The notes: generated by a model from the sequence alone, not told the origin. A stretch of DNA of 64,000 bases from an uncultured bacterium (GCA_964421245.1 CAYQVW010000009.1:1404-65403); one strand, 5' to 3'. Shown: positions 2,547-33,511, counted from the stretch's first letter. Numbers and translations: made by a program.

Positions 2547-3140
2547 ATGAAAAAAATATTATCAGCCTTGTTAGTTATTGTAATGTTTTCACTTGGGAGC
2601 AGCAGTTATGCCGCATCATTTACTCCAACTCTGCGTGGCGGTCTAGGGATGGACATCAACGGAGGACTTGCTTTTGGCCTCAGTGGAAATTACCTTATCA
2701 AAATGGGTCCGGAAACCTCCGAAATTGGACTAAGTTTATATAGTGGAAATTCTAGCAGAAGCACCACCAGCGGAGTTCATACCTATAATTACAAGACCAG
2801 CTTGTACGTTCTGGGCCTGGTAGTAAACCTTCTTCCAAATTACAATGCAACAACCGGCGGAATGTTTGGCGTACTTGGGGTTGGAATGGCCGGGGTTCTG
2901 GTCAACTGGAGCCAGCAAAGCAACACCGATAGCAGCCTTGGAACTCCAGATGGTGCCGGTGGAAGTGAAGAGAAAATTAGTGCAGGAGCCGCAGCCTCAA
3001 TTGTTAACCTTGGAGTTGGCTGGCTTGCCGGCGACCTAGATGTCCGCTTTGAAGTACCGATGCTCTTTATTTTCAACACTGTCGGAGGCGCATCGTCATT
3101 TGTACCAACCTTTACACTTACAGCGGGATATCGACTCTAA
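2547..3140 (+). CDS. Gly/Ser-rich secreted protein of unknown function
   Basis: Signal peptide MKKILSALLVIVMFSLGSSSYAAS. Strong RBS AGGAGG 7 nt upstream of ATG. Upstream -10-like TATAAT. Confidence 0.5.
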   Translation: MKKILSALLVIVMFSLGSSSYAASFTPTLRGGLGMDINGGLAFGLSGNYLIKMGPETSEIGLSLYSGNSSRSTTSGVHTYNYKTSLYVLGLVVNLLPNYNATTGGMFGVLGVGMAGVLVNWSQQSNTDSSLGTPDGAGGSEEKISAGAAASIVNLGVGWLAGDLDVRFEVPMLFIFNTVGGASSFVPTFTLTAGYRL

Positions 3141-4787: not shown

Positions 4788-5735
4788 CTAATTATAGCAA
4801 ATCTTCTGCAATTCTTTTATCAAATTATTCCAATAACGAGATGTGCCGGCATGAGGAAAGTGGGTTGTAAAATCAGGATCCCTGCTCTGAATTGCCAACC
4901 ATGAAACGTAATGAATAATTCTCATCCCACGCAAAAGAGGAACCAGCTCTAATGATTGACGATCAAACTTTCTGAAAACCTCATAGCCTTTTAAAAACCA
5001 TTCGAGTTTATTCTCACAATTTTCTGGCGTATCGGGAAGCAAAAGCCATAGATCCTGAACGGCAGGACCATAAGCAATATCATCAAAATCAACTATAAAT
5101 ATCCCCTCGTTTGGACGATGAATCAGATTTCCCTTATGACAATCGCCATGGAGGAGAATGAATTCTTGAGATTCAAACATTGGCTCAGCTTTCTTTAGAA
5201 AAAGTTCGGCTGTTTTTTTAAATGATTGTTCAAACTGTTGATTCAGGTAGTCAGTCTTATACAAGACTTCAAGATGGTGCTTCGTTGCAATAGAGGGTTT
5301 CCATATTATTCGTTTCCCCTCTTTATGATTCTGTCCAACTAGATGAATTCTTGCAATTAGACGTCCGATCTCTTCCCATCCTTCTTTATTAAACTCATCC
5401 ATTGCTCTTCCCCCCTTTTTAGGAAATAGAGAATAGGAAATAGGACCCAGCTCGAACAATGTTTGATTCTTAATCTTTAATGGAGGGATTACGGGAATTT
5501 CTTGTTCTGCTAGCTCAAAGAGAAAGTTGTGCTCTTCCAGTATTTGTTCGATGGTCCAGCGGCCGGGACGATAAAATTTTACTATAACTCTCTCTCTTGA
5601 ATCATGTTTTTCCAGCTCATAAACACGATTGACATAACTATTTCGTTTTAAAAGAAGATTACTCATCTTCTCACCGAGAGTCTTCTCAACTGTATTTAAG
5701 ATATTATCGTGATTTAGTTGTTGCCAAATATTCAT
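4788..5735 (-). CDS. Ser/Thr protein kinase of the RdoA/SrkA (YihE) family, APH-like fold
   Basis: HGDCHKGNLIHRP...FIVDFDDIAYGPAVQDLWLLL corresponds to the HGDLHxGN catalytic loop and DFDD metal-binding motif of YihE/SrkA kinases. Confidence 0.65.
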   Translation of the reverse strand: MNIWQQLNHDNILNTVEKTLGEKMSNLLLKRNSYVNRVYELEKHDSRERVIVKFYRPGRWTIEQILEEHNFLFELAEQEIPVIPPLKIKNQTLFELGPISYSLFPKKGGRAMDEFNKEGWEEIGRLIARIHLVGQNHKEGKRIIWKPSIATKHHLEVLYKTDYLNQQFEQSFKKTAELFLKKAEPMFESQEFILLHGDCHKGNLIHRPNEGIFIVDFDDIAYGPAVQDLWLLLPDTPENCENKLEWFLKGYEVFRKFDRQSLELVPLLRGMRIIHYVSWLAIQSRDPDFTTHFPHAGTSRYWNNLIKELQKICYN

Positions 5736-5773
5736 GCTTCTATTTCATTACATTATATAGTAGAATACCCGGA

Positions 5774-8700
5774 ATGGAAAAGAATATTAAATTCTTACTA
5801 ACCAGGTCGGCTTTCTTACTATTTATACTATTATTTCTTTTATTCACAAGTACTTATGCATACGCTGCCACAATTACAGTTACAGACAATGGGAACAGCG
5901 GAGCAGGAACATTACGCCAGGCTTTCTCTGACGCCAACGATGGAGATACCATTGACTTCAATCTCGCTGCCGGTACCGAAATAATTACTGTAGAAAGCCA
6001 AATTTCCACCTTCAATAAATCACTAACAATAGACGGTGATAATACAGCTGGCAGCGGAACAAATGTTACTGTCAAAGTTACTCTCGAAGGAGTCTGTACT
6101 TATCGAACATTTAGTCTTGATGCCAGATCTAATTATGACTTTGTTCTACAAAATATGACTATCCAGGGAGGAAATCTCTCTGCCTCGTATGGCGAGGGTG
6201 GCGCAATTTATTTTCGTGACGATAGTACTGGATCCCTCACCCTAACAAACTGCACTATCACAGATTCAAAAGCCTGGGAAGGTGGAGCACTTTATGTGGA
6301 TGTATCTGATGATGTGACTATCACAAATTGTACCTTTCAAGATAACGCGGCTGTTTCGAGCGGGAGTAGTGGCGGAGCGATGTATTTTAACACAGGAACC
6401 GGGTCAACAATAACAGGTACAGTTATTGATAATTGTACAGCTGAAAGCAGTGGTGGCGGAATTTTTCTTAGTAGCTATGACGGCATTACCATTGATAAGT
6501 GTACCTTTTCAAACAATTCGTCAAGTGTTGGTGATGGTGGAGGGATGGCTACTAGTAACAACGGAGATCTAGTTGCCGTAACCATTACTAATTCTACCTT
6601 TAATGGCAATACAGCTCCCGATACGGGTGAAGACGGTGGAGCAATCTATTTCTATTACGGTGTATATGTGGTAACTAATTGTACTTTTTTTGATAACTCG
6701 TGCGCCCGATTGGGTGGTGCTATTTTCTTTCCTTATTCAACACTAACAATAACAAACACAACAATTGCCAATAACGCTTCCACAGGAGGTACTGGGGACG
6801 GATTATATCATGGATCCGATAGTACTTTACGTATTAAGAATTGTCTCTTGGCCAATCAGGATGACAATGATTATGAATATTTTAGTGGCACTCTTACTAA
6901 TAATGGATACAATATAGTGGAAAACGATTCTGGTTGGAGTGCTGCTGGTACTGATATAACCGGTGATCAGGCAAACCTTCATCTTGATACTGCACTTGCA
7001 GATAACGGCACTGTTAATAGTACCCAAACATTAGCTTTGACAGACGAGGCAAGTGTTGCAAGAAATGCTGGTGATACAACCGCGAACAGCGGTGTTGCAA
7101 TTCCAACCACGGATCAACGTGGATTTTTCCGTTTAGGAGCTACAGATATAGGAGCCTATGAATATAGCGGTACCACCGAAGCAACACCATCTACTACAGC
7201 TCCAGCATCAATTTCTCAAGCCACTGACGGAACAGGATACGTTACCTTCCAAACAACTGTTACCGATTTAAATGATGACACCTGCAGTTTAGAGGTAGAA
7301 TATTCTGATGATGGAGGATCAAACTGGTATGATCCAGACCTGGTAAGTGTTTCTGGCGATGGGACGCCTACCGTTGATGATGCAAAAACCTTTCAGATAG
7401 AAAGTATAACCTCGACCGAAGATGATAATGCTTTAACTATTGTTTGGGACACGCTATCTGCCAGCAATGGTAACGGATCTTTGGATGCGGCTGACCAAGC
7501 AGATATTCAAGTAAGAGTTACCCCCAGCGATGGTACAGCCGAGGGTACGGTTCAAACTTCAGAGAGTTTTTCTGTAGATAATCTTGATCCAACACTTGAT
7601 TCAATTGCCTGGACAGATTCCGATTCATCAACCGATATTTCAGCAACAGATATATTGACATTTACATTTTCTGAAACAATGGAAAGTGGTTCAGTTGACA
7701 ATGCTTCTGGCGCAAATGATGTTGATACGGTTTTGGCGCCGTCAGCAGGAGACTATGGATCATCTGGAGCAGATGATTTGAGCTGGACAGGAGATACAAC
7801 TTTGGTCGTAACATTAGGGGCAGGAGCAGATCTGTCAAGTGGAGCAACCGTTAATCCGACAAATGCAGTATCGGATGAATCTGGCAACATAGATAATACA
7901 ACCTCTCCTCCGGCCATTACTGATAACGTCGGTTCAACTCTAGAATCAATTTCCTGGACAGACGTAGACTCTTCAACTGATTTTTCAGCAACGGATACAT
8001 TAACATTTACCTTTTCAGAAAATATGAGCACCGAAACAATTGATAATTCCGGTGGAGCAAATGATATTGATACGGTATTAGCTCCTTCTGCAGGGGATTA
8101 TGGTTCTTCGGGTGCTTCTCAAGTTAGCTGGAGTGACAGTTCAACTTTGGTTGTAACCTTGGGAACAGGGATAAATCTATTAAGCGGAGCAACAGTTAAT
8201 CCAACCGCTGTAGCATCAGATGAAGCAGGTAATGCAGATGATACAACGGCACCTGGTCCTCCGATAATAGATAATGTCGGACCAACCCTCGAATCAATTG
8301 CCTGGACAGATTCCGATTCGTCAACCGATATTTCAGCAACAGATATATTGACATTTACATTTTCGAAAAACATGAGCGCCGAAACAATTGATAATTCCGG
8401 TGGAGCAAATGATATTGATACGGTTCTTGCTCCATCTGTCGGCAATTACGGAGCATCCGGAACAGCGAATATTGCGTGGACAAGTGACACAACCTTAGTT
8501 ATAACATTAGGAGCAACTGCAACTGTGACAAGTGGAGCAACAGTTAATCCAACTAGTGCTGTCTCTGACGAAGTGGGAAACGCCGACAATACTGATGCCC
8601 CTGGACCATCAATCCTGGATAACATCTCCCCCACCCTTGAGTCAATTGCCTGGACTGATGATGATTCTTCAGGGTCAATCAACGTTGGTGATACCCTTTT

Positions 8701-10624
8701 ATTCACTTTTTCAGAAAACATGGACTCCTCGACTATTGTTTCTGGGAATATCGACACAATGCTTCCTCTCGCAGGAGTTGGAACCACTTATGGAGGAAGT
8801 CCAACAGCCGATTGGTCCACTCCATCAGGAGATAACGCACTAACCGTTACACTTGGTAGTAGTGTAGATGTAGACATAAATGATAGAGTTAATCCAGCTG
8901 CTTCTGTCACCGATGCTTATGGAAATGCTGATGGCACTCCTGCTCCAGGAGTAAAAATCAATAATGCCCTTGTCATTACTAGTGAAGCTGGATCAAACGG
9001 GTCAATCTCTCCATCCGGAACTGTTATCAAAACCACTAACAGCAATCAAACATTTACCATCACCCCAGACACGGGATATAGTATAGATACCCTATTGGTC
9101 GACGGAACATCAACCACCGCGACAACAGAATATACTTTTTCAAACATAACAGAAAATCACACGATCGAAGCAACCTTTGCAATTAATACATTTACCATAA
9201 CCTCAGAAGCAGGAACAAATGGCTCAATAACTCCATCCGGAATTACAGGTAAAAATTATGGTTCATCACAAACATACACTATTACCCCTGACAGCGGGTA
9301 TGGCGTAGATACCTTGTTAGTTGATGGAACTTCAACTACTGCAACAACAGAATATACCTTTACCAACATCACGGCCAACCACACAATAGAGGCAAGCTTT
9401 GTTCTAACAACCGTTAGTGCCTCAACAAATTGTGTAGCAACCGCTGACTCAACCAGCCAAATTAGTTTAAGTTGGACTAACAATGCCAGTGTCATATCTG
9501 AAAATAATATTGAACAGAGTTCTAATGGAATAACTTTTACTGAAATAGCGACCGCTGCTTCCAACGCAACCTCCTACTCTGCCACCGGATTAACTGCAAA
9601 CACTCGCTATTGGCATAGAGTAAGAGCAGAAAATAGCGGTACTTATTCTGATTACGCAACTGCAGAAGCAAAATATACTCTAGCTGAAACAATTACATCG
9701 GGAACTTCAGAAACTATCGGCTCAACTTTTATTAGAGTGTCTTGGGAAGCGGGAAGCAATCCTTCTGGAACACAATATTATTGTGAAAACCAAACTGCTG
9801 GAACCAATTCTGGCTGGATCACTAATACAACCTGGGAAAGTTCTTCCTTATCTTCCGAAACGTCATACACCTTTAGAATAAAAGCAAGGAATGGAGATGG
9901 AGCTGAGACCAGTTGGTATTCTATTGGAACATTCACTACCATAACGAAACCAACTCCGGACGAAGTAAAAATTGGAACAATAGGACTAATATCTGGAGAT
10001 ATAATCGGCAGTACGCCCAAAATAGCCGTTACAACCTCTGTTTCAAGTTCTGCTAATTCGGTTTCAGCAAAAGATCTTACAACAAAATCCATCAATGCAA
10101 GCAGTTTTAGAATCTATATTGATGATGTTCTTGTTACAGACGGTTTAAATACTTATTACGACACCGTCACTGTAGTTTCTGGAGTGGCTACTTTTGAATA
10201 TACTCCCAAAACCCCGCTCTCAGAGGGAACACACACAATCAGGATAGTTTTTAGTGATAGTGACGGAGTTGAGTATGAAGGGGAATATACTAATCTTCGA
10301 GTTATGACAACAGTTCAGGTAGTTGGAGATCCTCTTTGTTATCCAAATCCATACAATCCAACACAAGGGAATGTTCGAATTGCATATAGTCTAGGTGTCG
10401 ATACCAATGTAACCATCTACATTTTTAATTCTTACGGTGAAATACAATGGAAAAACAGCTATTTAAGCGGAGCATCTGGTGGTCAAGCCGGTTATAACGA
10501 AATAACCTGGAACGGCAGAAACATGTTTGGAAATTATGTAATGAATAATGTATATCTGATAAGAATTGTTAATAATAGTAACAATAAAATGCTTGGCAAA
10601 GCCAGACTGGCGGTTATTAAATGA
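5774..10624 (+). CDS. Giant multidomain secreted surface protein/adhesin. Domain order: signal peptide, Pmp-type beta-helix repeats, 4 tandem Big_5-like Ig domains, 2 InlB-B-like repeats, 2 FN3, T9SS/FlgD-Ig-like C-terminal domain.
   Basis: 1616 aa. N-terminal signal peptide. Repeated GGA[IL]YF and NCTFxDN/FxxN motifs (chlamydial polymorphic membrane protein repeat, parallel beta-helix). Four ~115-aa repeats with TFTFSExM...SGATVNP..AVSDExGN (SbsA/Big_5-like). Two ~80-aa repeats GSISPSG...TITPDTGYSIDTLLVDG (InlB B-repeat-like). Two FN3-like modules. C-terminus CYPNPYNP...VTIYIFNSYGE...WNGRN..G..V.NNVYLIRI resembles the T9SS type A sorting / FlgD Ig-like domain. Confidence 0.8.
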   Translation: MEKNIKFLLTRSAFLLFILLFLLFTSTYAYAATITVTDNGNSGAGTLRQAFSDANDGDTIDFNLAAGTEIITVESQISTFNKSLTIDGDNTAGSGTNVTVKVTLEGVCTYRTFSLDARSNYDFVLQNMTIQGGNLSASYGEGGAIYFRDDSTGSLTLTNCTITDSKAWEGGALYVDVSDDVTITNCTFQDNAAVSSGSSGGAMYFNTGTGSTITGTVIDNCTAESSGGGIFLSSYDGITIDKCTFSNNSSSVGDGGGMATSNNGDLVAVTITNSTFNGNTAPDTGEDGGAIYFYYGVYVVTNCTFFDNSCARLGGAIFFPYSTLTITNTTIANNASTGGTGDGLYHGSDSTLRIKNCLLANQDDNDYEYFSGTLTNNGYNIVENDSGWSAAGTDITGDQANLHLDTALADNGTVNSTQTLALTDEASVARNAGDTTANSGVAIPTTDQRGFFRLGATDIGAYEYSGTTEATPSTTAPASISQATDGTGYVTFQTTVTDLNDDTCSLEVEYSDDGGSNWYDPDLVSVSGDGTPTVDDAKTFQIESITSTEDDNALTIVWDTLSASNGNGSLDAADQADIQVRVTPSDGTAEGTVQTSESFSVDNLDPTLDSIAWTDSDSSTDISATDILTFTFSETMESGSVDNASGANDVDTVLAPSAGDYGSSGADDLSWTGDTTLVVTLGAGADLSSGATVNPTNAVSDESGNIDNTTSPPAITDNVGSTLESISWTDVDSSTDFSATDTLTFTFSENMSTETIDNSGGANDIDTVLAPSAGDYGSSGASQVSWSDSSTLVVTLGTGINLLSGATVNPTAVASDEAGNADDTTAPGPPIIDNVGPTLESIAWTDSDSSTDISATDILTFTFSKNMSAETIDNSGGANDIDTVLAPSVGNYGASGTANIAWTSDTTLVITLGATATVTSGATVNPTSAVSDEVGNADNTDAPGPSILDNISPTLESIAWTDDDSSGSINVGDTLLFTFSENMDSSTIVSGNIDTMLPLAGVGTTYGGSPTADWSTPSGDNALTVTLGSSVDVDINDRVNPAASVTDAYGNADGTPAPGVKINNALVITSEAGSNGSISPSGTVIKTTNSNQTFTITPDTGYSIDTLLVDGTSTTATTEYTFSNITENHTIEATFAINTFTITSEAGTNGSITPSGITGKNYGSSQTYTITPDSGYGVDTLLVDGTSTTATTEYTFTNITANHTIEASFVLTTVSASTNCVATADSTSQISLSWTNNASVISENNIEQSSNGITFTEIATAASNATSYSATGLTANTRYWHRVRAENSGTYSDYATAEAKYTLAETITSGTSETIGSTFIRVSWEAGSNPSGTQYYCENQTAGTNSGWITNTTWESSSLSSETSYTFRIKARNGDGAETSWYSIGTFTTITKPTPDEVKIGTIGLISGDIIGSTPKIAVTTSVSSSANSVSAKDLTTKSINASSFRIYIDDVLVTDGLNTYYDTVTVVSGVATFEYTPKTPLSEGTHTIRIVFSDSDGVEYEGEYTNLRVMTTVQVVGDPLCYPNPYNPTQGNVRIAYSLGVDTNVTIYIFNSYGEIQWKNSYLSGASGGQAGYNEITWNGRNMFGNYVMNNVYLIRIVNNSNNKMLGKARLAVIK
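7570..8960 (+). repeat. Four tandem ~345-bp (115-aa) intragenic repeats, highly similar at nucleotide level
   Basis: Repeat heads recur at ~7597, 7940, 8290 and 8635. Each begins cttga[at]tcaat[tg][gt]cctggac[at]ga...gatat... Period 343-350 bp. Confidence 0.8.
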
Positions 10625-11853
10625 AAATACTTCGACAAGCTCAGTATTTAATATTGTTATTAGTGTTTCTTGCAACAGCAAGTTATTCTTCATCAGTTCT
10701 TGATGCCGGAATCAGTGGAAGATCACTTGGACTTGCTGGAGCATTAACTGTAATGACTGAGGACGCTGGCAATAGTATATTTGGAAACCCAGCCTCTCTT
10801 TCTACCATGCAAACCCCAGAGGCTATTAGCATGTACAGTGAATTTACAGGAGATATCTATTACTCTCTTTTTGGAATGGCCTTTCCTACGAAGATTGGTG
10901 GATTAAGTCTTGGTTATGCCGGCAATCGTTCTAGAGAAATTATTAGCACCACTATAGATGGGAATGGCAGAATAGCAGCTTCATCAACATTCTACTATTA
11001 CGACGACATTTACACCCTAGGTTGGTCTCGCAAAATAAATCAGAAACTATCTTGGGGACTACGACTAAACCAATTTAATCGTGGAACTACTGATACCTCT
11101 TCTGGTGAAGTTGGGACTGGAGCTAATTTTGACTTCGGCCTCTTACTTTCTATTAACAAATACATTGATGCTGGAATATATTTAACCAATATTTTAAGAA
11201 ATACAATGAACTGGAGCAACGGAACGATCGAGGATCTTCCAATTGGCACAAATATCGGGGTTGGTTTATATCGTGGTCCGTTAAAACTATTTATCAATTA
11301 CCTAAACCGAGAAGATGTCCCAGCAAAGGTTGGAGTTGGAGCAGAATTCAATACCTGGAAAAACCTAAAAATACGGCTTGGGGTTCAACAATCTTCAATG
11401 ACTAACAATGAAAAATATTATACCACTACCCTTGGTCTTGGAATAAAACTTGGCAAAGTAAAAATAGATTATGCTTATAATCAAAATGATCTTCTTCTCT
11501 ACAATGCAAGGCACTATATCAGTTTATCAATTGCCTTCCCTGGACCCGGGAAAAAAGTAGTACAAGAAAAACCAACAATAAGTCCCATTATTGAAATAGA
11601 CGAGAAAATCATCATTCCCGCCTCAACAATAAAAAAACCTACTGTCACCAAAAAGACAATACAACCGAAAAAAGAAACAACAATTAAAAGTTCAACTAAA
11701 ACGGAAGCTACAATCGAACTTTATGATCCGATAGAGATAGAAAAAGAATTAGCTCAGCCTGATGATCCATTAAATATAAAACTTCTAGCTGTACTTAGTT
11801 TTATTGTGGTTGGAACTTTGGTTCTCTTGTTTTTCCTAGTTAGAAAACGATAA
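10621..11853 (+). CDS. PorV/PorQ-like (FadL-like) outer-membrane beta-barrel candidate with Pro/Thr/Lys-rich linker and C-terminal TM anchor
   Basis: ATG overlaps the upstream TAA (ATGA coupling). Signal peptide present. N-terminal SVLDAGISGRSLGLAGALTVMTEDAGNSIFGNPASL resembles the G.GAR.LGMGGA..A..DDA...WNPAGL opening of PorV/PorQ/UPF0164-type barrels. Alternating beta-strand-like pattern follows, then PT-rich spacer and LLAVLSFIVVGTLVLLFFLVRKR. Confidence 0.45.
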   Translation: MKILRQAQYLILLLVFLATASYSSSVLDAGISGRSLGLAGALTVMTEDAGNSIFGNPASLSTMQTPEAISMYSEFTGDIYYSLFGMAFPTKIGGLSLGYAGNRSREIISTTIDGNGRIAASSTFYYYDDIYTLGWSRKINQKLSWGLRLNQFNRGTTDTSSGEVGTGANFDFGLLLSINKYIDAGIYLTNILRNTMNWSNGTIEDLPIGTNIGVGLYRGPLKLFINYLNREDVPAKVGVGAEFNTWKNLKIRLGVQQSSMTNNEKYYTTTLGLGIKLGKVKIDYAYNQNDLLLYNARHYISLSIAFPGPGKKVVQEKPTISPIIEIDEKIIIPASTIKKPTVTKKTIQPKKETTIKSSTKTEATIELYDPIEIEKELAQPDDPLNIKLLAVLSFIVVGTLVLLFFLVRKR

Positions 11854-11869
11854 TATCTCTTTACTAATT

Positions 11870-12871
11870 TCAGTTATTAGGTTTTATAATTACCTTAAGA
11901 CATTCCTTGTTTTCACTCGCCAGATTAAATCCTTCACTTATTTTGTCAAGAGTTAGTCGGTGGGTAATCATATCATCTACTTTGATCTTACCGCTCTTTA
12001 AAAGTTCTACTGCTTGGCTGTTATCTCTTGGGGCCGCACCATAACAGGTTTTAAAACTTATGTCATTTCTCCAGTATGGATTAAAATCTATTGGAATAGT
12101 CTCTCCCGGTTTTGGCACAGCAAAGAAAAGGACAACTCCACCACGATCAACTGATTTCAATCCTTGTAATAAAGCGGGTAATGCTCCGGCAGATATCACA
12201 ACTTTATCAGCCAGTATACCAATATCATCGCCAGCACGAAACACAGCATCTGCCCCAAACTTTTTAGCAGTTTCCAGTCTAAAATTATTTAGATCGGTTG
12301 CAATTATCTTTCTGGCACCAAGTGCTTTTGCAAGTTTTACGTATAAAAGTCCAGCAAGACCAGATCCTATTATAAGAACACTGTCACTTGGTCTAATATT
12401 AATTGCTCGCATCCCTCTAACCACTGTTCCAAGTGGTTCAATAAAAGTCCCTTGCTCAAAAGAAAGCTCATCTGGAAGAATAAATGTACCGGTATCAACA
12501 CTCTTTCCTGAAACCTTTAAAAACTCGGAAAAACCTCCGGGAGTAAAATTATTCTTGGTTTGAAATGTTACACAGGCAGTTTCATTTCCATTTTTGCAAT
12601 AATGACATTCGTCACATGGCACATGATGTGTAGAGAAGACTCTGTCTCCGACTTTGAATTTTTTAATATCACTGCCAATCTTTACAATTTTTCCAGCAAG
12701 TTCGTGTCCAAGCACTAGCGGAGCTTTCTTGATCCGGTACCACTCCATCACATCACTTCCGCAGATACCAGAAGCCATGACTTGGATTAAAATATCTTTG
12801 GACTCAATTTCTGGGATAGGTTTTTCTTCAACCCTTACATCTTTATTGTTGTAATAGACTCCGGCCTTCAT
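11870..12871 (-). CDS. Zn-dependent medium-chain alcohol dehydrogenase (threonine/sorbitol dehydrogenase-like)
   Basis: GICGSDVMEWY...GHELAGKIVKIG (catalytic Zn site), CDECHYCKNG (structural Zn Cys cluster), LIIGSGLAGL Rossmann motif. Confidence 0.75.
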   Translation of the reverse strand: MKAGVYYNNKDVRVEEKPIPEIESKDILIQVMASGICGSDVMEWYRIKKAPLVLGHELAGKIVKIGSDIKKFKVGDRVFSTHHVPCDECHYCKNGNETACVTFQTKNNFTPGGFSEFLKVSGKSVDTGTFILPDELSFEQGTFIEPLGTVVRGMRAINIRPSDSVLIIGSGLAGLLYVKLAKALGARKIIATDLNNFRLETAKKFGADAVFRAGDDIGILADKVVISAGALPALLQGLKSVDRGGVVLFFAVPKPGETIPIDFNPYWRNDISFKTCYGAAPRDNSQAVELLKSGKIKVDDMITHRLTLDKISEGFNLASENKECLKVIIKPNN

Positions 12872-13743
12872 TTTGCTAATTTTTTGTAAAGTTGAAGTGC
12901 TTTCTTCACACTACGTCCTTCATGCACAATAGATCTTACAGCCTGAATCATTGCAACTGGATTTTCGTTTTGAAAGATGTTGCGCCCCATATCAACGCCA
13001 ACTGCACCCGCCTTAACTGCGTTAGAAACAAAATCGAGCGCCTCTTTGGTCGGCCTTTTGGTTCCTCCGGCAATTACAATTGGAGCTAGGCAAGAATCAA
13101 CTACCTCTTCAAAGCCATCACAATAATATGTTTTTACAATGTCGGCCCCATTTTCAGAAACAACGCGAGCTGCATGTTTTAAATATTTTAACGCTTCTTT
13201 TTTATCATCCTTTGTTAAGTCTCCTCCACCCTCTCTCTCCCCTTTTACAAATCTGGTTAGTATAGGATCACTCCCTACTGCGGTAATCCCGATAGAAATT
13301 AATCCATACTTGCGTGCTTCGTTTGTAAGGCTGGTAAGATTACCGATGCTCTCTGTTTGGTGAGGCAATCCAATGTAGCAGGAAGCGGTAAATCCTATGG
13401 CATTGCATTTTATCATTTCTTCAACCGAGACGGTCACAATTTCGTCATCCAGCTGGTCTGATTTTCTCATACTGTTTCCGCCGGTTGCTCGTAAAATTAT
13501 TGGAGTCTTTGTAAATGGGTCTATACTTGTTTTTAGTCCACCGATAGTCGGGCTAATTGCATCACAATAAGGCAGAAGAGGATCAACCGTTCCTCTTAAA
13601 TCTTCAAGTCCTTTAGGTGCTCCCTGAAAATAACCATGATCAACGGCAAGCAACACGGTTCTACCCGATTTTAGGTTAAACATCTGTGCCAACCTATTTT
13701 GCAATCCACTCCATTCCATTTGATAATCAGTAACTTTTTTCAC
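12868..13743 (-). CDS. DhnA/LsrF-family class I aldolase (fructose-bisphosphate aldolase class I / ADH synthase / LsrF thiolase family)
   Basis: 291 aa. RTVLLAVDHGYFQGAPKGLED (Schiff-base family signature). C-terminal PIVIAGGTK...GAVGVDMGRNIFQNENPVAMIQAV closely resembles LsrF/DhnA. Exact subfamily not assignable by eye. Confidence 0.6.
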   Translation of the reverse strand: MKKVTDYQMEWSGLQNRLAQMFNLKSGRTVLLAVDHGYFQGAPKGLEDLRGTVDPLLPYCDAISPTIGGLKTSIDPFTKTPIILRATGGNSMRKSDQLDDEIVTVSVEEMIKCNAIGFTASCYIGLPHQTESIGNLTSLTNEARKYGLISIGITAVGSDPILTRFVKGEREGGGDLTKDDKKEALKYLKHAARVVSENGADIVKTYYCDGFEEVVDSCLAPIVIAGGTKRPTKEALDFVSNAVKAGAVGVDMGRNIFQNENPVAMIQAVRSIVHEGRSVKKALQLYKKLAK

Positions 13744-13930
13744 TACTAAGTCCTCCCTTTATATCCTCCGAAGCCACAAAGGGCGAAGGAGGATGGTTTT
13801 TCTTAATTATACCACATGAAAAATTCGAAGCGCTTTCCTTTGGGTGTTTCACCGCTTGCCCAGATTAATCGTGGTTTTTTAGGGTCTGGCCCATAGGAAA
13901 CATTATCAAAATTCAGAATAAATTTTTGGT

Positions 13931-18063: not shown

Positions 18064-20259
18064 TCAGCAGAATTCCCGCTCTTCACCAAGTATTTCCCGA
18101 AGAGTTAAGCTAGCAATAAAACCATTCGCACCATCATTCTCATTAATAACAGCAAATAAAGCAGGAATAGCATGATTACCTAATGCTGTCAGCTCTTCTG
18201 TTTTCATAATAGGATCTAGTGTATAAGCATAAAGCTCTTGATATCCCTGAGAACCCTCATCATAATCCCCAATATCTATTGCAGCTTGCGCGGCAACCTG
18301 CCTAACAAATAAATCTTTATGACTCAATGCTTTTCTAATTATATTCTCGGCTTTTATCCTTTTAGCTGCTTTAATTGCATGTGAAATAAACAGACCACTC
18401 TCATCCTCCAAAGCAGCCAACAAAGCAGGATAAGGATTTTCTCCTAAATCAACTGGACCAAAATCATCTCGATCCGTAAGTAATTTGTAAGCATGTAATA
18501 CATCATATTCCGGATCTTCTTCTCTTAATCCCTTTATTGCTATGAGGGCCTCGGCTGCTCTACCTCTGATATCTTTACGGGAATCTTTAAGGGCAGCTTC
18601 TAAAGCAGGAATAGCAGTATGCCCTAACTTAACAACACTTGGCCAAGCTCCTTTCGTCTTTACTCCCAGTTTGCCTATTGACCTATAAACATTCAATTTA
18701 TTATATCTATCTTGCCCTGGAGACAAACTATCATATTTTATTAGCAACTCTGCAGCAAAACTTCTAATAGTAAAATCTTTGTGACTTAATGCTCGAACCA
18801 TAATATCTTTAGAATCAGCACCAGCAATCTTATCTAACATATTTATGGCTAACAAATCATCTAAACCATTATTTTTAAAAGCAATTTCGGCTAGAACCGG
18901 AACAGCCGCTCTACCAAACGCAAGAATATCGTCCCATTTTTTATCCATAAATAATTTATATGCTTTAATCTGGCTGTCCACTTCCAACTCACTAACCTTT
19001 CTTGGATCAAACAATGCTATTTCTCCCAGAATTTCCATCGTTGTTTTACCTTGTAACTCTAGTAAAGCAACCTGCTTGTAGACCAAACAATAAATCCTAT
19101 TCAAATCCCAAGATTGCCCCTCGCTTAACAACAAAATTCTTTGCCTAATATGTTGCTCTAAATATTCTGCAATTTTATGTTTTTCACTAAACAATTGGCC
19201 TTTAATTGGAAAACGTTGTGGATAAACTGGGAATCCCCACTCCTTCTTGCTTCCAGAGGTTTTTCCACTACTTAAGAAATATCCACCAGATATAAAAGCC
19301 TGAACTTCTGGGGGATACAACTCTTCCGGACAACTAGCTAATACTTTTGTTACTCGCTCGGTATAGGCAGACATATTCATCCGATCCACCAACTCTTCAA
19401 ACCACCGTGAATTAAACCGGTGAAAACCAAAGATCCAATGCCCTACTTCCGCCTTTAAGCAACTGTCAATAGCATCTCCAGATTGGGCACTAGTCTCCTT
19501 GCCAAATAGATCAACTGATCCTTCAACAACAGACCATCCATCTTGATTATATTTAAAAGATCCCGCCTCTCTATTTAATTCGAACGCTTCAATATCTTTT
19601 GTTAAACCGCTAAGCCCAAGTTTTTCTTCAAGCATTTTCTTCTCTAACCATACCCCTTTTCTATACTCTTCTCTAAGAACTCCACCGTCTACCATATTAA
19701 ACGTCCATTCTTTGTACCTCTCATATTGTGCCAATCCTGCCTTCCCCGCTCTTGCTAAAAATTCGAAACGTAAAAGATCTGCCTCATCCATATCCCCAAA
19801 CTCTCGAGACAAAGAATTATAAGTCCCCTGCCAAAACCCTTGTCTCATGCCAGCAAAATTACTATCTTCTACTTGTTGAGCTCTTCCCCATTCCGCATTA
19901 AAGAGGGTCCAAGCAGTCTCAGCCGAGATTGTTCCGACAGCGACCATCTGTTTTATGCTATAGACAGTAAAGGATAAGTAATCTTTCTGTAACTGAGTTA
20001 AAGCTTGTAGTTCTTTTTCTTTTGGAAGTTTTTTGTCAATTAGTTTATCAATACCTCGTGGTATCTCATGAAAAGTTAAAGCATGTACAATACCCCTACG
20101 GGCAACCCCATCAATAGTAGTGCCGACATCCGTATTGTGTCCTGGTAATCGCCATTTGACAGGGTAAGGATTTAACTGAATTGCCCTATTAAAAACACCT
20201 ATATTTGCCATATCTACATATATATCGTCAAAATGAGGGCAAAATTTCACCCCTTGCAT
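18064..20259 (-). CDS. Large hypothetical protein with C-terminal HEAT/PBS-lyase-like repeats
   Basis: 731 aa. C-terminal third has repeated ~30-aa units (D..VR..AA.AL..IG, SRKDIRGRAAEALIAIKG, FTIRSFAAELLIKYD) typical of HEAT repeats. N-terminal 450 aa unassigned. Confidence 0.45.
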   Translation of the reverse strand: MQGVKFCPHFDDIYVDMANIGVFNRAIQLNPYPVKWRLPGHNTDVGTTIDGVARRGIVHALTFHEIPRGIDKLIDKKLPKEKELQALTQLQKDYLSFTVYSIKQMVAVGTISAETAWTLFNAEWGRAQQVEDSNFAGMRQGFWQGTYNSLSREFGDMDEADLLRFEFLARAGKAGLAQYERYKEWTFNMVDGGVLREEYRKGVWLEKKMLEEKLGLSGLTKDIEAFELNREAGSFKYNQDGWSVVEGSVDLFGKETSAQSGDAIDSCLKAEVGHWIFGFHRFNSRWFEELVDRMNMSAYTERVTKVLASCPEELYPPEVQAFISGGYFLSSGKTSGSKKEWGFPVYPQRFPIKGQLFSEKHKIAEYLEQHIRQRILLLSEGQSWDLNRIYCLVYKQVALLELQGKTTMEILGEIALFDPRKVSELEVDSQIKAYKLFMDKKWDDILAFGRAAVPVLAEIAFKNNGLDDLLAINMLDKIAGADSKDIMVRALSHKDFTIRSFAAELLIKYDSLSPGQDRYNKLNVYRSIGKLGVKTKGAWPSVVKLGHTAIPALEAALKDSRKDIRGRAAEALIAIKGLREEDPEYDVLHAYKLLTDRDDFGPVDLGENPYPALLAALEDESGLFISHAIKAAKRIKAENIIRKALSHKDLFVRQVAAQAAIDIGDYDEGSQGYQELYAYTLDPIMKTEELTALGNHAIPALFAVINENDGANGFIASLTLREILGEEREFC

Positions 20260-26805: not shown

Positions 26806-27387
26806 TCAGTTATCTAAAATTAAAACCGCGGCCGCTAAAACCGTGGTCCAAACACCACGTTGTCCAATGGCCGACTGCGTAATATTGGTGGTGCGAACTA
26901 TCTGATCAGAAAGCTTCCAGGTCTCTTGTCGCTCGTCATAATCAACACTTTCGTCATACTCAATACCAAGTGTTGTAGCTAGCATTTGAGCCGCCATATC
27001 TTCTGCGTAACTACCACACTCTTCATCTGTCTGCCCCCAAGAGTGGTGTTCACTTAAATAACCGTAACTATTTTTATCTGCCGGAAGCGCAAGTCCAACT
27101 GAAGATGAGATTAATCGATGAGATTCATCTGTTTGGTTTCGTGACATAACAATAAAGGTGATCTCACCTGGTTTAATTGTTTGCAGACCTTGTTCTCTTG
27201 AGATCATTTTAGCCCCAGGAGGGAAGATGCTTGAAACCTGAACATAATTTACCGCTTGAATACCAGCAGCCCTAAGTGCCATCTCAAAAGATACCAACTT
27301 TTCTCTGTGACGCCCTACCCCTTTTGTCAAAAAAAGTTTGTCTGGAACAAAAATATTTTTCTTTTCCGGCACAATTATATCAGCCAA
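26806..27387 (-). CDS. pdaD: Pyruvoyl-dependent arginine decarboxylase (PvlArgDC) proenzyme
   Basis: FLTKGVG...[30 protein letters not shown] matches archaeal/chlamydial PdaD/AaxB including the self-cleavage Ser-Ser site (VSS|I). Confidence 0.75.
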
Positions 27388-28132
27388 TTCCTGGTCTCCT
27401 TCTCTTTATATCTTTTTCATCCAAGGGACTAACCTCTACCTTTTTAGCAGAATAAATTGATTTGGTCAACAACGGTTTGAATAACTCTTCCACTTTCTCT
27501 ATCTCTTCTTTTGATAAAGCCTTTTCGGCACAATCGCGAGTAGGAGTTCCGATATAAACAATTCTAGGATTAATCTCTTTTGCTAATCGCGCAATATTTG
27601 CTGCATCATCAATGTTCTTTTGGGTTATCATAACCTGCAAAGCTAACCCTTGTTTAAAATTTTTGATCCCTTCAATTATTCTAGCAAGATCAACATCTCC
27701 TCCCGGTTGGTTCATCTTTTTCAAAACGGTATCAGATGCTGCATCCAATTTTGCAATCACCAGATCAATTGATTTTAAATCTTCTTGAACTTTTGGGTCA
27801 GACATGGTTGTAGAGTTAGTTAGCAATGCAATCGGTTTACTTGATCTCTTCTTAATCTCTTGTGCAACTTCTCCGATATTTAAAGCCAGAGTCGGCTCTC
27901 CGGTTCCGGAAAAGGTTATGTAGTCATATTCTAAATCTTTTGGCAGGGATTCGAATTCTTTTATTATTTCATCAGTCGGAATAAAAACCTTTCTCAAAAG
28001 AGTTTTGGCATTACCATTCCCAACCTGGCAATAGAGACAATCAAAGGAACAATATTTGTCTCCCGATATCAGATCAACCCCTAAAGATCGACCTAATCGC
28101 CATGATGCTACGGGACCATATATATATTTCAT
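27380..28132 (-). CDS. Radical SAM protein of unknown specificity
   Basis: [11 protein letters not shown] (CX3CX2C) preceded by [16 protein letters not shown]. Confidence 0.6.
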
Positions 28133-28905
28133 TAAACTCCTCTAAGAATAGTATTCTTTATGTGTTTTTTAGAAATCTCAACCATTTTTTCAAGTTGATC
28201 TCTTTCGTAAGGCTTAACTTTTACCAAAGACGGATCAAGGGTCTCTTTTGGAACAAATTGCTGCAGGGCAAATTTTTGTGCTCCAGCAATTGATTTTGCC
28301 AAATCCTCAATATCTTTTTCATTAAGTAACGTTGGAACAACTGTGGTTCTAAATTCATAAGGTAATCCTGATGTCATGACAATTCTAATACTTTTCATAA
28401 TATTGTTTATGTCTGTCTTTATTCCAGAAAGCTTATTATATCGCACGTCCAACGGTCCTTTAAGATCCATTGCAATATAGTCAACTAAATTATCTGCAAT
28501 TGCTCTCTGAATAACATCAGGAAATGCCCCATTTGTATCTAACTTGACCCTAAACCCTTGACCCTTGACCCTAATAATAAATTCAAATAGTCCATTCTTC
28601 TCGTGCAAACAAGGTTCTCCTCCGGTTAAACAGATGCCGTCAATAAAATCCTTATGTTCTTTCAGATAACTTTCAATTTTTTCAATAGAAATAAGATCAA
28701 ATTGCTTTGGATCTTCTATCAAACCAGCATTATGGCAAAATGGGCAGCGAAAATTACAGTTTGGCGCGTAGACAACTGCACAAACCTTACCATCCCAATC
28801 CAAAAACGATGTTTCTTGAAACCCTCTAATTTCCATAATTTCTCTCACCAAATATGGCCGTTCCAATACGAACCAGATTCGCCCCTTCTTCAATCGCGAC
28901 CTCAT
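28132..28905 (-). CDS. Radical SAM activase-like protein (NrdG/PflA-like fold)
   Basis: FLDWDGKVCAVVYAPNCNFRCPFCHN (CX3CX2C), with the preceding buried-substrate motif typical of glycyl-radical-enzyme/anaerobic RNR activases. Contains a (CTTGACC)n insertion. Confidence 0.55.
   Translation of the reverse strand: MRSRLKKGRIWFVLERPYLVREIMEIRGFQETSFLDWDGKVCAVVYAPNCNFRCPFCHNAGLIEDPKQFDLISIEKIESYLKEHKDFIDGICLTGGEPCLHEKNGLFEFIIRVKGQGFRVKLDTNGAFPDVIQRAIADNLVDYIAMDLKGPLDVRYNKLSGIKTDINNIMKSIRIVMTSGLPYEFRTTVVPTLLNEKDIEDLAKSIAGAQKFALQQFVPKETLDPSLVKVKPYERDQLEKMVEISKKHIKNTILRGV
28543..28575. repeat. (CTTGACC)n heptamer tandem array inside radical SAM gene
   Basis: cttgacc ctaaacc cttgacc cttgacc; encodes IRVKGQGFRVKLD on the gene strand. 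Confidence 0.8.
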
Positions 28906-29464
28906 AAGAAGAAGACATGCCCATTGATAATATTTCTAAATTTCCAATTTGATCAAACACTTTCTTTGTTTCGACAAAATATGGGCGGACAACCTCTGGA
29001 TTGTCAGAAAATGGCCCCATCGTCATCAAGCCCTTTATTTTAACATTTTTAAGTTCAGAAATTTGTTGGATTAACTGATCAACTTTTTCAGGATACACCC
29101 CGGCCTTCTGTTCTTCTCGCCCACTATTAACCTCAATCAAAATCGGCATTACTTTGCCAATCTTTGCACATTGCTTATCAATCTCTTTAGCTAGCTTCAT
29201 TGAATCAACGGTCTCAATCATATCGAATAACTGAACTGCTTTCTTAACCTTGTTGGTTTGTAAGTGTCCTATAAAATGAACCTTGACCCTTGGAACTTGC
29301 CCCTTGACCCTATCCCATTCCTGAACATAATTCTCCCCTACTATAGTAATACCAGCCTCAATGGCCTCTTTAATTTCTTCAGGAGTTCTGGTCTTTGCAG
29401 CAGCAACTAATTTTACATTGGGAGGTAACTCGGATAATATCTTTTTAACGTTTTCTTTGATCAT
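28826..29464 (-). CDS. yggS: YggS-family pyridoxal-phosphate homeostasis protein (alanine racemase N-terminal-like barrel)
   Basis: KLVAAAKTRTPEEIKEAIEAGITIVGENYVQE...HFIGHLQTNKVK...ILIEVNSG...GLMTMGP matches YggS/PLPHP. Confidence 0.8.
   Translation of the reverse strand: MIKENVKKILSELPPNVKLVAAAKTRTPEEIKEAIEAGITIVGENYVQEWDRVKGQVPRVKVHFIGHLQTNKVKKAVQLFDMIETVDSMKLAKEIDKQCAKIGKVMPILIEVNSGREEQKAGVYPEKVDQLIQQISELKNVKIKGLMTMGPFSDNPEVVRPYFVETKKVFDQIGNLEILSMGMSSSYEVAIEEGANLVRIGTAIFGERNYGN
29282..29309. repeat. (CTTGACC)n-like array inside yggS
   Basis: cttgacc cttggaa cttgccc cttgacc; encodes DRVKGQVPRVKVH. Confidence 0.75.
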
Positions 29465-30407
29465 TTGATATCATTTCTAATAAAATCAATGCAACTTGCT
29501 TGCTATAGCGTTTTGAGATATTAAGCGGATCTAAACCGGGCCAACCCCAACAAGCGGTGTGTATAACACCTTCTACTTCATAAGAAATATTATCCAATGA
29601 AGTCGGATGCATGGACTCGATTGGGGACTGGCCGGCAGGATTAGCAACTAAATCCGTGATAACCGCACCCTTTTTAAAAAGCTTGAGCATCTCTTTTTTA
29701 ATTAAAATCACTTTACCACGCTTATCCATTGGCCAATTAAGACCGTTAACCAAAATATCACACCCTGGAATATGTTTTTCCATCTCATAAATATCTTTTT
29801 TATTCAAAATAGTTACTTTTGCAAACTTTCTGGCGGCCGCCTTGATCGCCCCATAAGCAACCATGCCATACCCCATTACTTTGACAACACATTTTTCAGG
29901 ATTTCCCTTCTGCCTCGCCGGCTCGCCTCGCGAAGCGGGCAGGCGGGTCCATAATTCAAAACCCTTCTCCATTCCAAGCCGCCCTGTATCCTCTAATGCC
30001 TCAATTCTTCTTCTTCCCAAAGAATCCTTAATTTCTCCCATTGAAATACCATCAATCTTGTATCTATCAAGAAGTTTCTTTAGCTCCGGTTGTCCCGGCA
30101 AGTGAAGCATAGATAAAATAGAGCTTCCCGGCTTCATTAATTTTAATTCTTCTTCATTCGGCTCTTTTAGCCTAACAACAAGATCGCAAGAATAGACCTC
30201 TTTACGAGAAACAACAGATGCTTTGGCCTTCTTATACTCTTCATCGCTTACACCAATTCCCAAACCAGCCCCTTCCTCAACAAAAACATTGGATATTCCT
30301 TTTATATCTTCTGGAAGAAGAATTACACGTTTTTCCTGAGGACGATTTTCAGAAGCGACACCGATTTTCATTTTAGACATCCATATGAGTGAATTTTTTT
30401 TCTTCAA
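29445..30407 (-). CDS. AlaDH/PNT-family NAD(P)-dependent dehydrogenase (alanine dehydrogenase / carboxyethyl-ornithine synthase-like), ~310 aa
   Basis: N-terminal KIGVASENRPQEKRVILLPEDIKGISNVFVEEGAGLGIG matches the AlaDH/PNT N-domain. VKVMGYGMVAYGAIKAA is the Rossmann motif. Carries a 46-nt GC-rich in-frame insert (LPASRGEPARQKG). True start may be the internal MKIGV. Confidence 0.55.
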   Translation of the reverse strand: MKKKNSLIWMSKMKIGVASENRPQEKRVILLPEDIKGISNVFVEEGAGLGIGVSDEEYKKAKASVVSRKEVYSCDLVVRLKEPNEEELKLMKPGSSILSMLHLPGQPELKKLLDRYKIDGISMGEIKDSLGRRRIEALEDTGRLGMEKGFELWTRLPASRGEPARQKGNPEKCVVKVMGYGMVAYGAIKAAARKFAKVTILNKKDIYEMEKHIPGCDILVNGLNWPMDKRGKVILIKKEMLKLFKKGAVITDLVANPAGQSPIESMHPTSLDNISYEVEGVIHTACWGWPGLDPLNISKRYSKQVALILLEMISNDQRKR

Positions 30408-31419
30408 AATTGCGGTAAATATACTTCTTTCCTTTTTTCTTAACTAAATAATCTGGGGAAAGAGGTATTTTTCCACCACCATTTTCAATATCTAAAATAA
30501 GTTTTGGGACAGCTAATCCAGATGTATGGCCTATAACCTTTCTCATTATTTTCAAAGCCTGATCAATTGAAACCCTAAAGTGATGAGACCCTTCAACAGC
30601 ATCTGGAATATAAATATAATATGGACGAACTAATATTTTGAGTAATTTCTCATTAAGCTCAATTAAAGTCTTTGGGTTATCATTTACCCCTTTTAGCAAA
30701 ACAGACTGATTCCCCATTAAAATCCCATGATCTGTTAGCAGTTTACAGGCTTTCGTCGCTTCTTTGGTTATTTCTCGAGGATGGTTAAAATGGGTCAAAA
30801 AATAGAGTGGTTGATATTTTTTGAGCATCTTACAAAGCTTGGGCGTTATTCTTTGTGGAAGAGTACAAGGTGTTCTCGAATCAATTCTAACAATTTCTAC
30901 ATGCTTTATCTTTTTTAACTCTTTAAGATAACGCTCTATTTTACTATCATCCAGAAGCAATGGATCTCCTCCAGAAATAATAACATCCCTGACTTTCTTT
31001 TTTGCTTTGATATACTTTATTGCTCTATTAAAATCTTTATCTGACAAAGTGGCATACTTCTTCCCAACTTTTCTCTTTCTAGTACAAAAGCGGCAGTACA
31101 TTGCACATTTATTTGAGACCAAAAGCAAAACACGATCCGGATAGCGATGAACAACCCCAAAAATCGGGGTATGTTTCTCTTCATTCAGTGGGTCTAAATT
31201 ACCATCTCTATTAATAATCTCTTCTGAATCGGGAATACACTGTTTCCAAATCGGATCATTTTTTTTCTTAATTAAACTCAAATAATAACGATTAACTAAA
31301 AGCGGAAAACGATGAGCAACCTCATCAATATCCCCATTTCCAATCTTTTTAGGATCAATAATTGCGTTTTTAAATAGTTTTTTCCAGTCAGACACCAATT
31401 CCTCCAATAATCTGTTCAA
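30373..31419 (-). CDS. kamA: KamA-family radical SAM aminomutase (lysine 2,3-aminomutase / EpmB-like)
   Basis: CAMYCRFCTRKRKVG is the KamA-family CX3CX2C cluster. 348 aa is in the EpmB/KamA size range. Confidence 0.75.
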   Translation of the reverse strand: MNRLLEELVSDWKKLFKNAIIDPKKIGNGDIDEVAHRFPLLVNRYYLSLIKKKNDPIWKQCIPDSEEIINRDGNLDPLNEEKHTPIFGVVHRYPDRVLLLVSNKCAMYCRFCTRKRKVGKKYATLSDKDFNRAIKYIKAKKKVRDVIISGGDPLLLDDSKIERYLKELKKIKHVEIVRIDSRTPCTLPQRITPKLCKMLKKYQPLYFLTHFNHPREITKEATKACKLLTDHGILMGNQSVLLKGVNDNPKTLIELNEKLLKILVRPYYIYIPDAVEGSHHFRVSIDQALKIMRKVIGHTSGLAVPKLILDIENGGGKIPLSPDYLVKKKGKKYIYRNFEEKKFTHMDV

Positions 31420-33498: not shown

Positions 33499-33511
33499 TT
33501 CTATGCCTCCC

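Follow-up and report, generated by a model that had tools for sequence, protein, structure and literature searches.

A translationally coupled adhesin-like protein and PorV-type barrel as a candidate surface-anchoring pair in Candidatus Margulisiibacteriota

Two overlapping genes were analysed on the forward strand of a 64,000-nucleotide stretch of DNA from an uncultured bacterium (GCA_964421245.1 CAYQVW010000009.1:1404-65403; the whole stretch is called the window throughout the paper, and positions are counted from its first letter). The first open reading frame, ORF A, encodes a large secreted adhesin-like protein with a C-terminal domain (CTD) related to type IX secretion system (T9SS) sorting domains. 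The second, ORF B, encodes an outer-membrane protein of the PorV/PorQ superfamily. By analogy with known CTD-barrel pairs, we lean with slightly better than even confidence towards B being the cognate outer-membrane anchor of A, which would hold A via the CTD and would itself be tethered inward.

The gene pair and its two defining domains

ORF A (5774..10624, +, stop codon included) starts with ATG and encodes 1,616 amino acids. ORF B (10621..11853, +, stop codon included), also with an ATG start, encodes 410. The stop codon of A and the start codon of B share the four nucleotides ATGA (10621..10624, +). An earlier note, made from the sequence alone, had described both ORFs and their overlap, and all were present at these positions. 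The motifs quoted there were likewise located in the translations, namely CYPNPYNP and YLIRI in A and, in B, GISGRSLGLAGA...EDAGNSIFGNPASL, the spacer rich in P, T and K and the hydrophobic helix with RKR at the C-terminus. Contigs from JGI and ENA carry the identical A gene, and an orthologue was found at the syntenic locus of a sister species (L151). The B protein occurs in identical form on 17 contigs, which stem from several samples of JGI and ENA. Comparison with L151 gave a ratio of nonsynonymous to synonymous substitution rates (dN/dS) of 0.04 for the barrel and of 0.12 for the C-terminal 554 amino acids of A. Given the 17 contigs with identical B and the dN/dS values at L151, both genes are taken as real and not as an assembly artefact; the substitution pattern indicates purifying selection on the barrel and the C-terminal part of A. 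The tandem repeats of ORF A lead to fragmented assemblies, and gene callers give shortened products of 634-769 amino acids. Contigs from other assemblies of the same locus (L004, L005, L006) begin inside the repeat-rich part of the ORF.

The host was assigned using the leucyl-tRNA synthetase (LeuRS) encoded in the window and the taxonomy of the barrel family. The LeuRS showed 74% identity to its counterpart in candidate division WOR-1 RIFOXYB2_FULL_46_45 and 61-69% to those of eight more metagenome-assembled genomes (MAGs). Five of the eight are labelled Ca. Margulisiibacteriota (63-69%), and the other three bear only the label 'uncultured bacterium'. Matches ranking below these reached at most 61% (one Thermoanaerobacteraceae MAG, 61%) and lay mostly at 54-60% in other phyla. 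All named members of the barrel family came from Margulisiibacteriota or Saganbacteria, as did one independently found CTD protein. By these sequence comparisons the host belongs to Ca. Margulisiibacteriota, a sister lineage of the Cyanobacteria, and not to the Bacteroidota, which agrees with the non-Bacteroidetes origin suspected before. The GC content is ~0.35-0.42.

The CTD of A (aa 1513-1616; 10310..10621, +; CYPNPYNP … GGQAGYNEITW … VYLIRI) was identified by HMM and profile matches at the extreme C-terminus. It abuts the stop codon and, with the N-terminal signal peptide recognised by eye, has the position of a type A sorting domain. Scanned alone as the last 101 amino acids, the CTD matched the C-termini of the PorU model (E=1.2e-6) and the PorZ model (E=3.5e-3) as well as FlgD (E~1e-3). 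The cut-offs of TIGR04183 (16.2 bits, cut-off 23), PF18962 (11.4 bits, cut-off 27) and FlgD_ig (PF13860; 14.1-14.5 bits, cut-off 27) were all missed. A family profile based on an alignment of 32 related CTDs (A5) was compared with all PDB sequences, and the CTD of Porphyromonas gingivalis PorU was found on top (6za2, residues 1056-1148, E=1e-3), followed by FlgD. When the 32 relatives were scanned singly, 21 matched FlgD_ig (E<=0.01, best 5e-10), 12 matched Por_Secre_tail (E<=0.01) and 11 matched CHU_C (PF13585). The signature of the subfamily is YPNP(Y/F)xP … GG(K/Q)AGYNE … G(I/V)Y. As its sequence matches the CTDs of PorU and PorZ with significant E-values, and in view of the evidence at family level, we assign the CTD of A to a divergent subfamily of the T9SS-CTD/FlgD-Ig superfamily, though it stays under each curated threshold. 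The T9SS-type sorting domain claimed in the earlier note thus holds at the superfamily level, while the failure at every curated cut-off is one half of what the note itself had named as refuting it.

Protein B starts with a putative signal peptide, read by eye from the translation (aa 1-24; 10621..10692, +). An N-terminal hatch follows (aa 25-62; 10693..10806, +) with the motif G-x-S-x-R-S-L-G…F-x-N-P-A, including the NPA of the FadL/PorV type, which was delimited by conservation, alignment with PorV and an AlphaFold2 model. The adjoining region is a predicted beta-barrel of about 14-16 strands (aa 63-306; 10807..11538, +), based on AlphaFold2, Foldseek and the dN/dS of 0.04. Using NCBIfam models, B matched PorV_fam (NF033709) with E=2.2e-13 and 50.5 bits, missing the cut-off of 90, and more weakly PorVQ2 (3e-9), PorQ (3e-5) and PorV (3e-3). 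The equivalog models were all missed, with 16.8 versus 250 bits for NF033710 (PorV), 23.3 versus 220 for NF033711 (PorQ) and 36.2 versus 325 for NF052325 (PorV2). PorV_fam was matched by 53 of 53 aligned relatives of B (best 1.6e-30), one of which passes the cut-off (L115, 98 bits versus 90), and a Saganbacteria member of the family is already named 'PorV/PorQ family protein' at NCBI. The PorP/SprF model TIGR03519 gave no match in B and matched 1 of the 53 relatives (5.7e-5). Pfam matches of B to Rhomboid (E 0.32) and OMP_b-brl (E 0.9) were dismissed as noise.

AlphaFold2 prediction of B from the single sequence was uninformative (predicted local distance difference test, pLDDT, 36) and was repeated with the 53-sequence alignment. 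The resulting model (pLDDT 83.7, predicted template modelling score 0.70; barrel pLDDT mostly 90-98) consists of short helices (aa 26-62), a beta-barrel (aa 67-305), a disordered stretch (aa 306-384) and a helix (aa 385-409). A Foldseek comparison with the PDB placed PorV of Flavobacterium johnsoniae on top (8gl6_F, E=4e-10; 6h3i_F, TM-score 0.64), followed by FadL and TodX. In the comparison of the barrel family profile with PDB sequences, PorV was the sole barrel match (E=1.6e-5), the alignment covering the hatch motif (G-ARxxGLG…NPA; PorV ARAAGLGD…NPAKYA) and the last strands. Within the hatch, N56 is invariant, and at least 90% of the 53 sequences share G30, R34, G39, P57 and A58. An exhaustive HMMER search with aa 1-310 of B yielded 1885 clusters with E<=1e-3, of which 374 reached E<=1e-10; in these clusters the B-type domain of ~300 amino acids is invariably N-terminal, in proteins of 300-840 amino acids. 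A word-index homologue search missed most relatives (4 matches for B, 20 short fragments for the CTD profile), and a scan with the barrel alignment A3 gave no matches. From sequence matches and model together, B is classified as an outer-membrane barrel of the PorV/PorQ/FadL superfamily, as had been suggested from its N-terminal motif.

Recurrence of the pair and its possible mode of action

A metagenome scan with the CTD only gave 55 loci, from which the 51 CTD genes followed by 1 kb or more of sequence were counted. A barrel gene was found immediately 3' in 32 of the 51, and start and stop codons overlap by 4 nucleotides in 21 of these 32 pairs, as in A and B. The association of the barrel with CTD proteins is a genomic one; its frequency argues for a functional pairing and not for chance, in line with the earlier note. 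A reverse check began from barrel homologues only 30-39% identical to B. The same CTD was found at the end of the genes upstream of barrels P0007 (in L088) and P0009 (in L091). It was also found in L149 from Saganbacteria, with a 4-nucleotide overlap to P0033, a barrel with a transmembrane tail, and upstream of the barrel in L148, a Margulisiibacteriota MAG from NCBI (GCA_050250935.1).

The CTD of A is preceded by an immunoglobulin-like (Ig) domain (aa 1388-1512; 9935..10309, +), recognised by a weak, sub-threshold match to Big_13 (19 bits) and by identity to the L091 cargo. The latter carries LamG/GLUG-type modules and is otherwise unrelated; it is 50% identical to A over aa 1387-1616. Ig domain and CTD together form a conserved C-terminal cassette of ~230 amino acids. 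At L151 the first cargo has additional InlB-B repeats in place of the four Big_5-like repeats of A. As passengers differ at L091 and L151 while the last ~230 amino acids and the barrel persist, sequence comparison identifies the cassette plus the barrel as the kept unit, with passengers swapping between loci.

Further arrangements were observed around related pairs. At L151 a second CTD cargo (11269-13848; 859 amino acids, FBA and fn3 matches) directly follows the barrel, giving the order cargo-barrel-cargo. In fifteen loci (L113-L120, L122, L124, L125, L128, L129, L135, L141) the region about 2 kb upstream of the CTD gene holds a third gene, directly adjoining that of the cargo. Its product, a secreted protein of ~640-690 amino acids with an NPASLG motif, weak similarity to the barrel HMM and no NCBIfam match, is probably a larger paralogous barrel. 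L148:10001-18903 comprises a 158-aa CTD protein with a tail-less 295-aa barrel, then a secreted protein of 590 and a GH18 protein of 1115 amino acids, and finally two proteins whose C-termini are SLH-like, possibly a surface-protein island. The window itself contains no equivalent of the upstream third gene, and no second CTD or PorV-like ORF was found in its 64 kb.

Downstream of the barrel, B continues with a linker rich in P, T, K, I and E (aa 307-387; 11539..11781, +), which is predicted to be disordered (pLDDT 43-61) and presumably periplasmic, and which is only 40% identical in the sister species. A C-terminal transmembrane helix (LLAVLSFIVVGTLVLLFFLV) plus RKR completes the protein (aa 388-410; 11782..11850, +; Kyte-Doolittle maximum 2.98, helix in the AlphaFold2 model). 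After the last strand, the relatives of B carry either no tail, SLH, LysM, SPOR/RlpA-like, TPR or Lys-rich/coiled-coil tails, or a linker with a transmembrane helix; the latter with a basic end was found in B, P0001, P0030, P0033 (Saganbacteria), P0051 and L136. The membrane anchor, regarded as unusual in the earlier note, is thus one of several interchangeable tails of the family and is not confined to this locus. A PEP-CTERM or sortase-type signal was ruled out for the tail of B, as the six barrels of this type share no motif before the helix; for the same reason the helix is read as a plain membrane anchor. The termini of FadL/PorV-type barrels point into the periplasm, so that the various tails would be alternative periplasmic tethers, to peptidoglycan or, in the case of B, to the inner membrane. 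With ~80 flexible residues, the linker of B would be long enough to span the periplasm. In several cargos (L088, L093-L095, L098-L101, L138, L142) the CTD is not terminal. A tail of 35-70 amino acids comes after it, made up of 'SS…', a short spacer, a transmembrane helix rich in Gly, and K/R. From the sequence, this looks like a tripartite sorting signal. Where a cargo has such a tail, the adjacent barrel, if any, has SLH instead of a transmembrane helix.

The tails and the fold of B also bear on the idea that B is mainly an outer-membrane tether or a FadL-like channel for hydrophobic compounds, with its adjacency to A due to envelope co-expression only. FadL and TodX are close in fold and share the N-terminal hatch with NPA motif, and one barrel (P0071) is found without a CTD neighbour. 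Moreover, SLH, LysM and SPOR tails resemble the OmpM/OmpA-type tethers and SLH adhesin anchors of Terrabacteria diderms. There, as in many B paralogues, an outer-membrane barrel is combined with periplasmic SLH domains, by which the outer membrane is tied to the wall; however, OmpM has an N-terminal SLH domain and a porin barrel, whereas the B family has a C-terminal module on a PorV-type barrel, and B itself a transmembrane helix. FadL, unlike the B proposed here, serves lipid transport and has no protein partner. In 32 of 51 cases the barrel trails one specific CTD, with passengers and flanking genes that differ, the stop/start overlap is conserved, and PorV beats FadL both by fold and by sequence. 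We regard an unpartnered tether or channel as very improbable.

In the anchoring mechanism that we favour, A would be exported across the inner membrane by Sec as a modular adhesin-like surface protein, sorted by its last ~230 amino acids (Ig domain and T9SS-type CTD). B would be produced from the mRNA of A by coupled translation, bind the CTD and keep it uncleaved and bound, with A displayed on the cell surface. A might cross the outer membrane through B itself or through a translocon whose genes lie elsewhere. With its flexible linker of ~80 amino acids, its membrane helix and RKR, the tail of B would link the anchor to the inner membrane, and in the paralogues SLH, LysM or SPOR domains at the same position would tie the barrel to the cell wall. 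Such an inward tether could give the adhesin a load-bearing connection to the envelope. The analysis shows the gene structures, the folds and families, the phylum and the conserved coupling; binding between CTD and barrel, the surface location of A and the topology of the tether are what we infer from these data. The labels 'self-contained' and 'shuttle', used in the earlier note for the pair, found no support: about a third of the related CTD genes have no adjacent barrel, and inward tethers favour a fixed anchor.

We are aware of the fact that several observations weigh against B as a fixed anchor of A. The CTD and the barrel both score under the curated family cut-offs, and it is unusual for one protein to span the inner and the outer membrane. 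The pairing is not strictly one to one, as the CTD genes without an adjacent barrel and barrel P0071, which has no CTD gene upstream, demonstrate. With about a third of the CTD genes lacking a barrel, the CTD would therefore also be read by some shared component. The membrane helix with basic end ~10-40 amino acids past the CTD in several related cargos fits poorly with a CTD on the outer face of a barrel, so that either this tail is cleaved or the contact between CTD and barrel is periplasmic. Finally, a scan of 40 of the window's 58 ORFs of at least 120 aa revealed no T9SS core gene, as the earlier note had already remarked for the window, and no SprA-sized ORF without a CTD was found beside ~60 related loci. 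Large neighbours at the related loci were housekeeping-looking or unassigned ORFs; one was PurL.

An ordinary T9SS, full or reduced, could be encoded elsewhere in the genome. B would then be a transient PorV-type shuttle, the CTD would be cleaved by a PorU-like sortase, and A would be linked to a surface glycolipid or released. Both CTD and barrel fall in T9SS-related superfamilies, and the many CTD proteins without their own barrel suggest shared machinery. PorU, SprA and PorKLMN, however, were not seen in the sequence scanned, and a barrel tied to inner membrane or wall is hard to square with a mobile shuttle. PorV has the same fold and the hatch with NPA motif, but in Bacteroidota it is a single general, mobile shuttle associated with SprA and without a periplasmic extension, in contrast to the many paralogous barrels beside cargos found here. 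In the library searched, no relevant paper was found that connects T9SS or PorV with Margulisbacteria, Saganbacteria, Melainabacteria or SLH. An ordinary T9SS appears quite unlikely to us.

In a self-contained two-partner secretion, B itself would translocate A across the outer membrane and then anchor it, without SprA or a motor. Slam (type XI) and TpsB proteins are outer-membrane barrels encoded beside their substrates, with periplasmic TPR or POTRA extensions, and Slam reads a C-terminal beta-domain. B would accordingly read the C-terminal beta-domain of the protein of the adjacent gene in the style of the 14-stranded Slam or of TpsB. The tight operon coupling, with a 4-nucleotide overlap in most paired loci, is consistent with such a system, as are the TPR tails in some relatives of B, which resemble those of Slam proteins. 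So is the fact that no T9SS core gene was found in the scanned window ORFs or beside ~60 related loci, in a phylum beyond the T9SS range (Bacteroidota and the Fibrobacteres-Chlorobi-Bacteroidetes, FCB, group) given in the literature consulted. Yet known genomes scatter their T9SS genes, so absence from 64 kb is weak evidence. Furthermore, the lumen of PorV/FadL barrels is filled by the N-terminal hatch, whose motif B retains, and in the known system PorV is not the translocon. Beside many CTD genes there is no barrel. B also differs from Slam and TpsB in belonging to the PorV/FadL fold class, and showed no similarity to Slam/DUF560 or TpsB in Pfam and NCBIfam (no DUF560/Slam match at E<=1). 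We consider two-partner secretion unlikely.

Passenger region of A and other genes of the window

The N-terminus of A was read by eye as a putative Sec signal peptide (aa 1-31; 5774..5866, +), with the presumed junction between …TYAYA and ATITV. It is followed by a right-handed beta-helix with GGAIYF-type internal repeats (aa 32-464; 5867..7165, +; PF13229, Beta_helix, E=3e-16), at the end of which lies a choice-of-anchor Q domain (aa 407-464; NF041518, E=1.7e-10). A beta-rich segment without significant match in the Pfam scan (aa 465-600; 7166..7573, +) leads to four tandem Ig-like repeats of ~116 amino acids (aa 601-1064; 7574..8965, +), which are 46-74% identical to each other by self-BLAST. 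They are Big_5-like and sub-threshold, with scores of 20.2, 16 and 14 bits all below the cut-off of 23.6. Two InlB B-repeat (Flg_new_2) domains come next (aa 1065-1213; 8966..9412, +), for which PF18998 gave 31 and 29.7 bits, above the cut-off of 23.6; the two units of ~74 amino acids each (aa 1064-1213) are 71% identical. Using a cut-off of 25 bits for PF00041, one of two fibronectin type III (FN3) domains (aa 1214-1395; 9413..9958, +) passes with 27.7 bits, and the other lies below with 23.7.

The architecture guessed earlier was therefore largely right in beta-helix, InlB-B repeats and FN3 domains, while Big_5 and one FN3 domain remained below cut-off. The description of the beta-helix as Pmp-type was not upheld, as Chlam_PMP scored 17 bits against a cut-off of 20.6 and A has no autotransporter domain. 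A chlamydial Pmp or type V autotransporter was ruled out for A by the sub-threshold repeats, the missing beta-domain and a C-terminus made up of Ig domain and CTD.

Upstream of ORF A, a gene for an APH-family kinase (4788-5735, -) is transcribed divergently, with 38 nucleotides between the start codons (5736-5773). In view of this gap, the promoter of the kinase gene and/or of ORF A must lie within the coding sequence of the neighbour. A consensus scan for promoters and terminators did not rise above shuffle level and gave no information.

Other genes of the window were recorded as follows. The 197-aa protein encoded at 2547-3140 (+) has a signal peptide, is Gly/Ser-rich, ends in …TLTAGYRL and matched nothing in Pfam; a small outer-membrane beta-barrel is one possibility. 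A ClpB/ClpC-type AAA+ chaperone of 957 amino acids is encoded at 59696-62569 (-), and its first ~60 amino acids match McsA (NF053706, E=2e-14), the activator of protein-arginine kinase. This match suggests an McsA-like zinc-finger segment fused to a Clp ATPase. Several genes overlap one another in a run at 26806-32206 (-). Their products are a pyruvoyl-dependent arginine decarboxylase, two radical SAM proteins, a protein with an alanine-racemase N-domain (PF01168), an AlaDH/PNT-like dehydrogenase, a radical SAM protein like lysine-2,3-aminomutase and a 272-aa protein without assignment. The run may represent an amino-acid or polyamine modification pathway. No family was assigned to the ORFs at 18064-20259 (-; 731 aa, HEAT repeats only), 42138-43700 (+; 520 aa) and 32212-33528 (-; 438 aa, signal peptide).

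Relation to known systems and significance

In P. gingivalis, PorU and PorZ are known to keep their CTDs uncleaved and attached to PorV and PorQ, respectively, so that an Ig-like CTD is held by a 14-strand barrel of the PorV/PorQ family (PMC10202324). The pair of A and B, known from sequence, resembles these complexes in that the CTD of A best matches those of PorU and PorZ, and B matches PorV_fam, PorQ and PorV structures. It differs in the phylum, in the adjacent coupled genes, in the many paralogous pairs and in the periplasmic tether fused to the barrel; moreover, no SprA, PorU or motor was seen, and both proteins lie under curated cut-offs. PorP/SprF proteins, encoded beside type B cargos, have been proposed as the anchors of these cargos, whose CTD is probably uncleaved and which require a longer region than the minimal CTD (PMC10202324). 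As with SprB-SprF of F. johnsoniae, a dedicated PorV-like barrel gene clusters with the cargo, and 11 of the 32 related CTDs match CHU_C. In contrast to SprF, B is no PorP/SprF member, the CTD is nearer to type A and FlgD_ig, and the host lies outside the FCB group. The best reading by analogy is that the pair would work like PorQ-PorZ, PorV-PorU and SprF-SprB, but outside the PorV, PorQ, PorV2 and PorP equivalogs.

In PMC10202324 and in further abstracts, T9SS is ascribed to the Bacteroidota/FCB group. Measured against these sources, which place T9SS CTD signals and PorV-type barrels in Bacteroidota/FCB, a coupled pair of both recurs here in a sister phylum of the Cyanobacteria. For annotation in this phylum, a 'FlgD' or 'hypothetical' tail with a downstream 'hypothetical' or 'SLH domain' protein would be read as one module. 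Should the pair act as an anchor, it would show by what means diderm Terrabacteria without Lpp and Pal attach large adhesins to their envelope. It is conceivable, though doubtful, that the Margulisiibacteriota including Saganbacteria possess a minimal, hitherto undescribed system of secretion and anchoring, made up of no more than a CTD tag and a dedicated PorV/FadL-type barrel tethered to the wall or the inner membrane, without SprA, PorKLMN motor and PorU. If the pair does work without SprA and motor, it would represent a new, very simple secretion route and give a clue to the origin of the T9SS attachment module. The recognition module of CTD and PorV would then be older or wider than T9SS and would have been recruited into T9SS.

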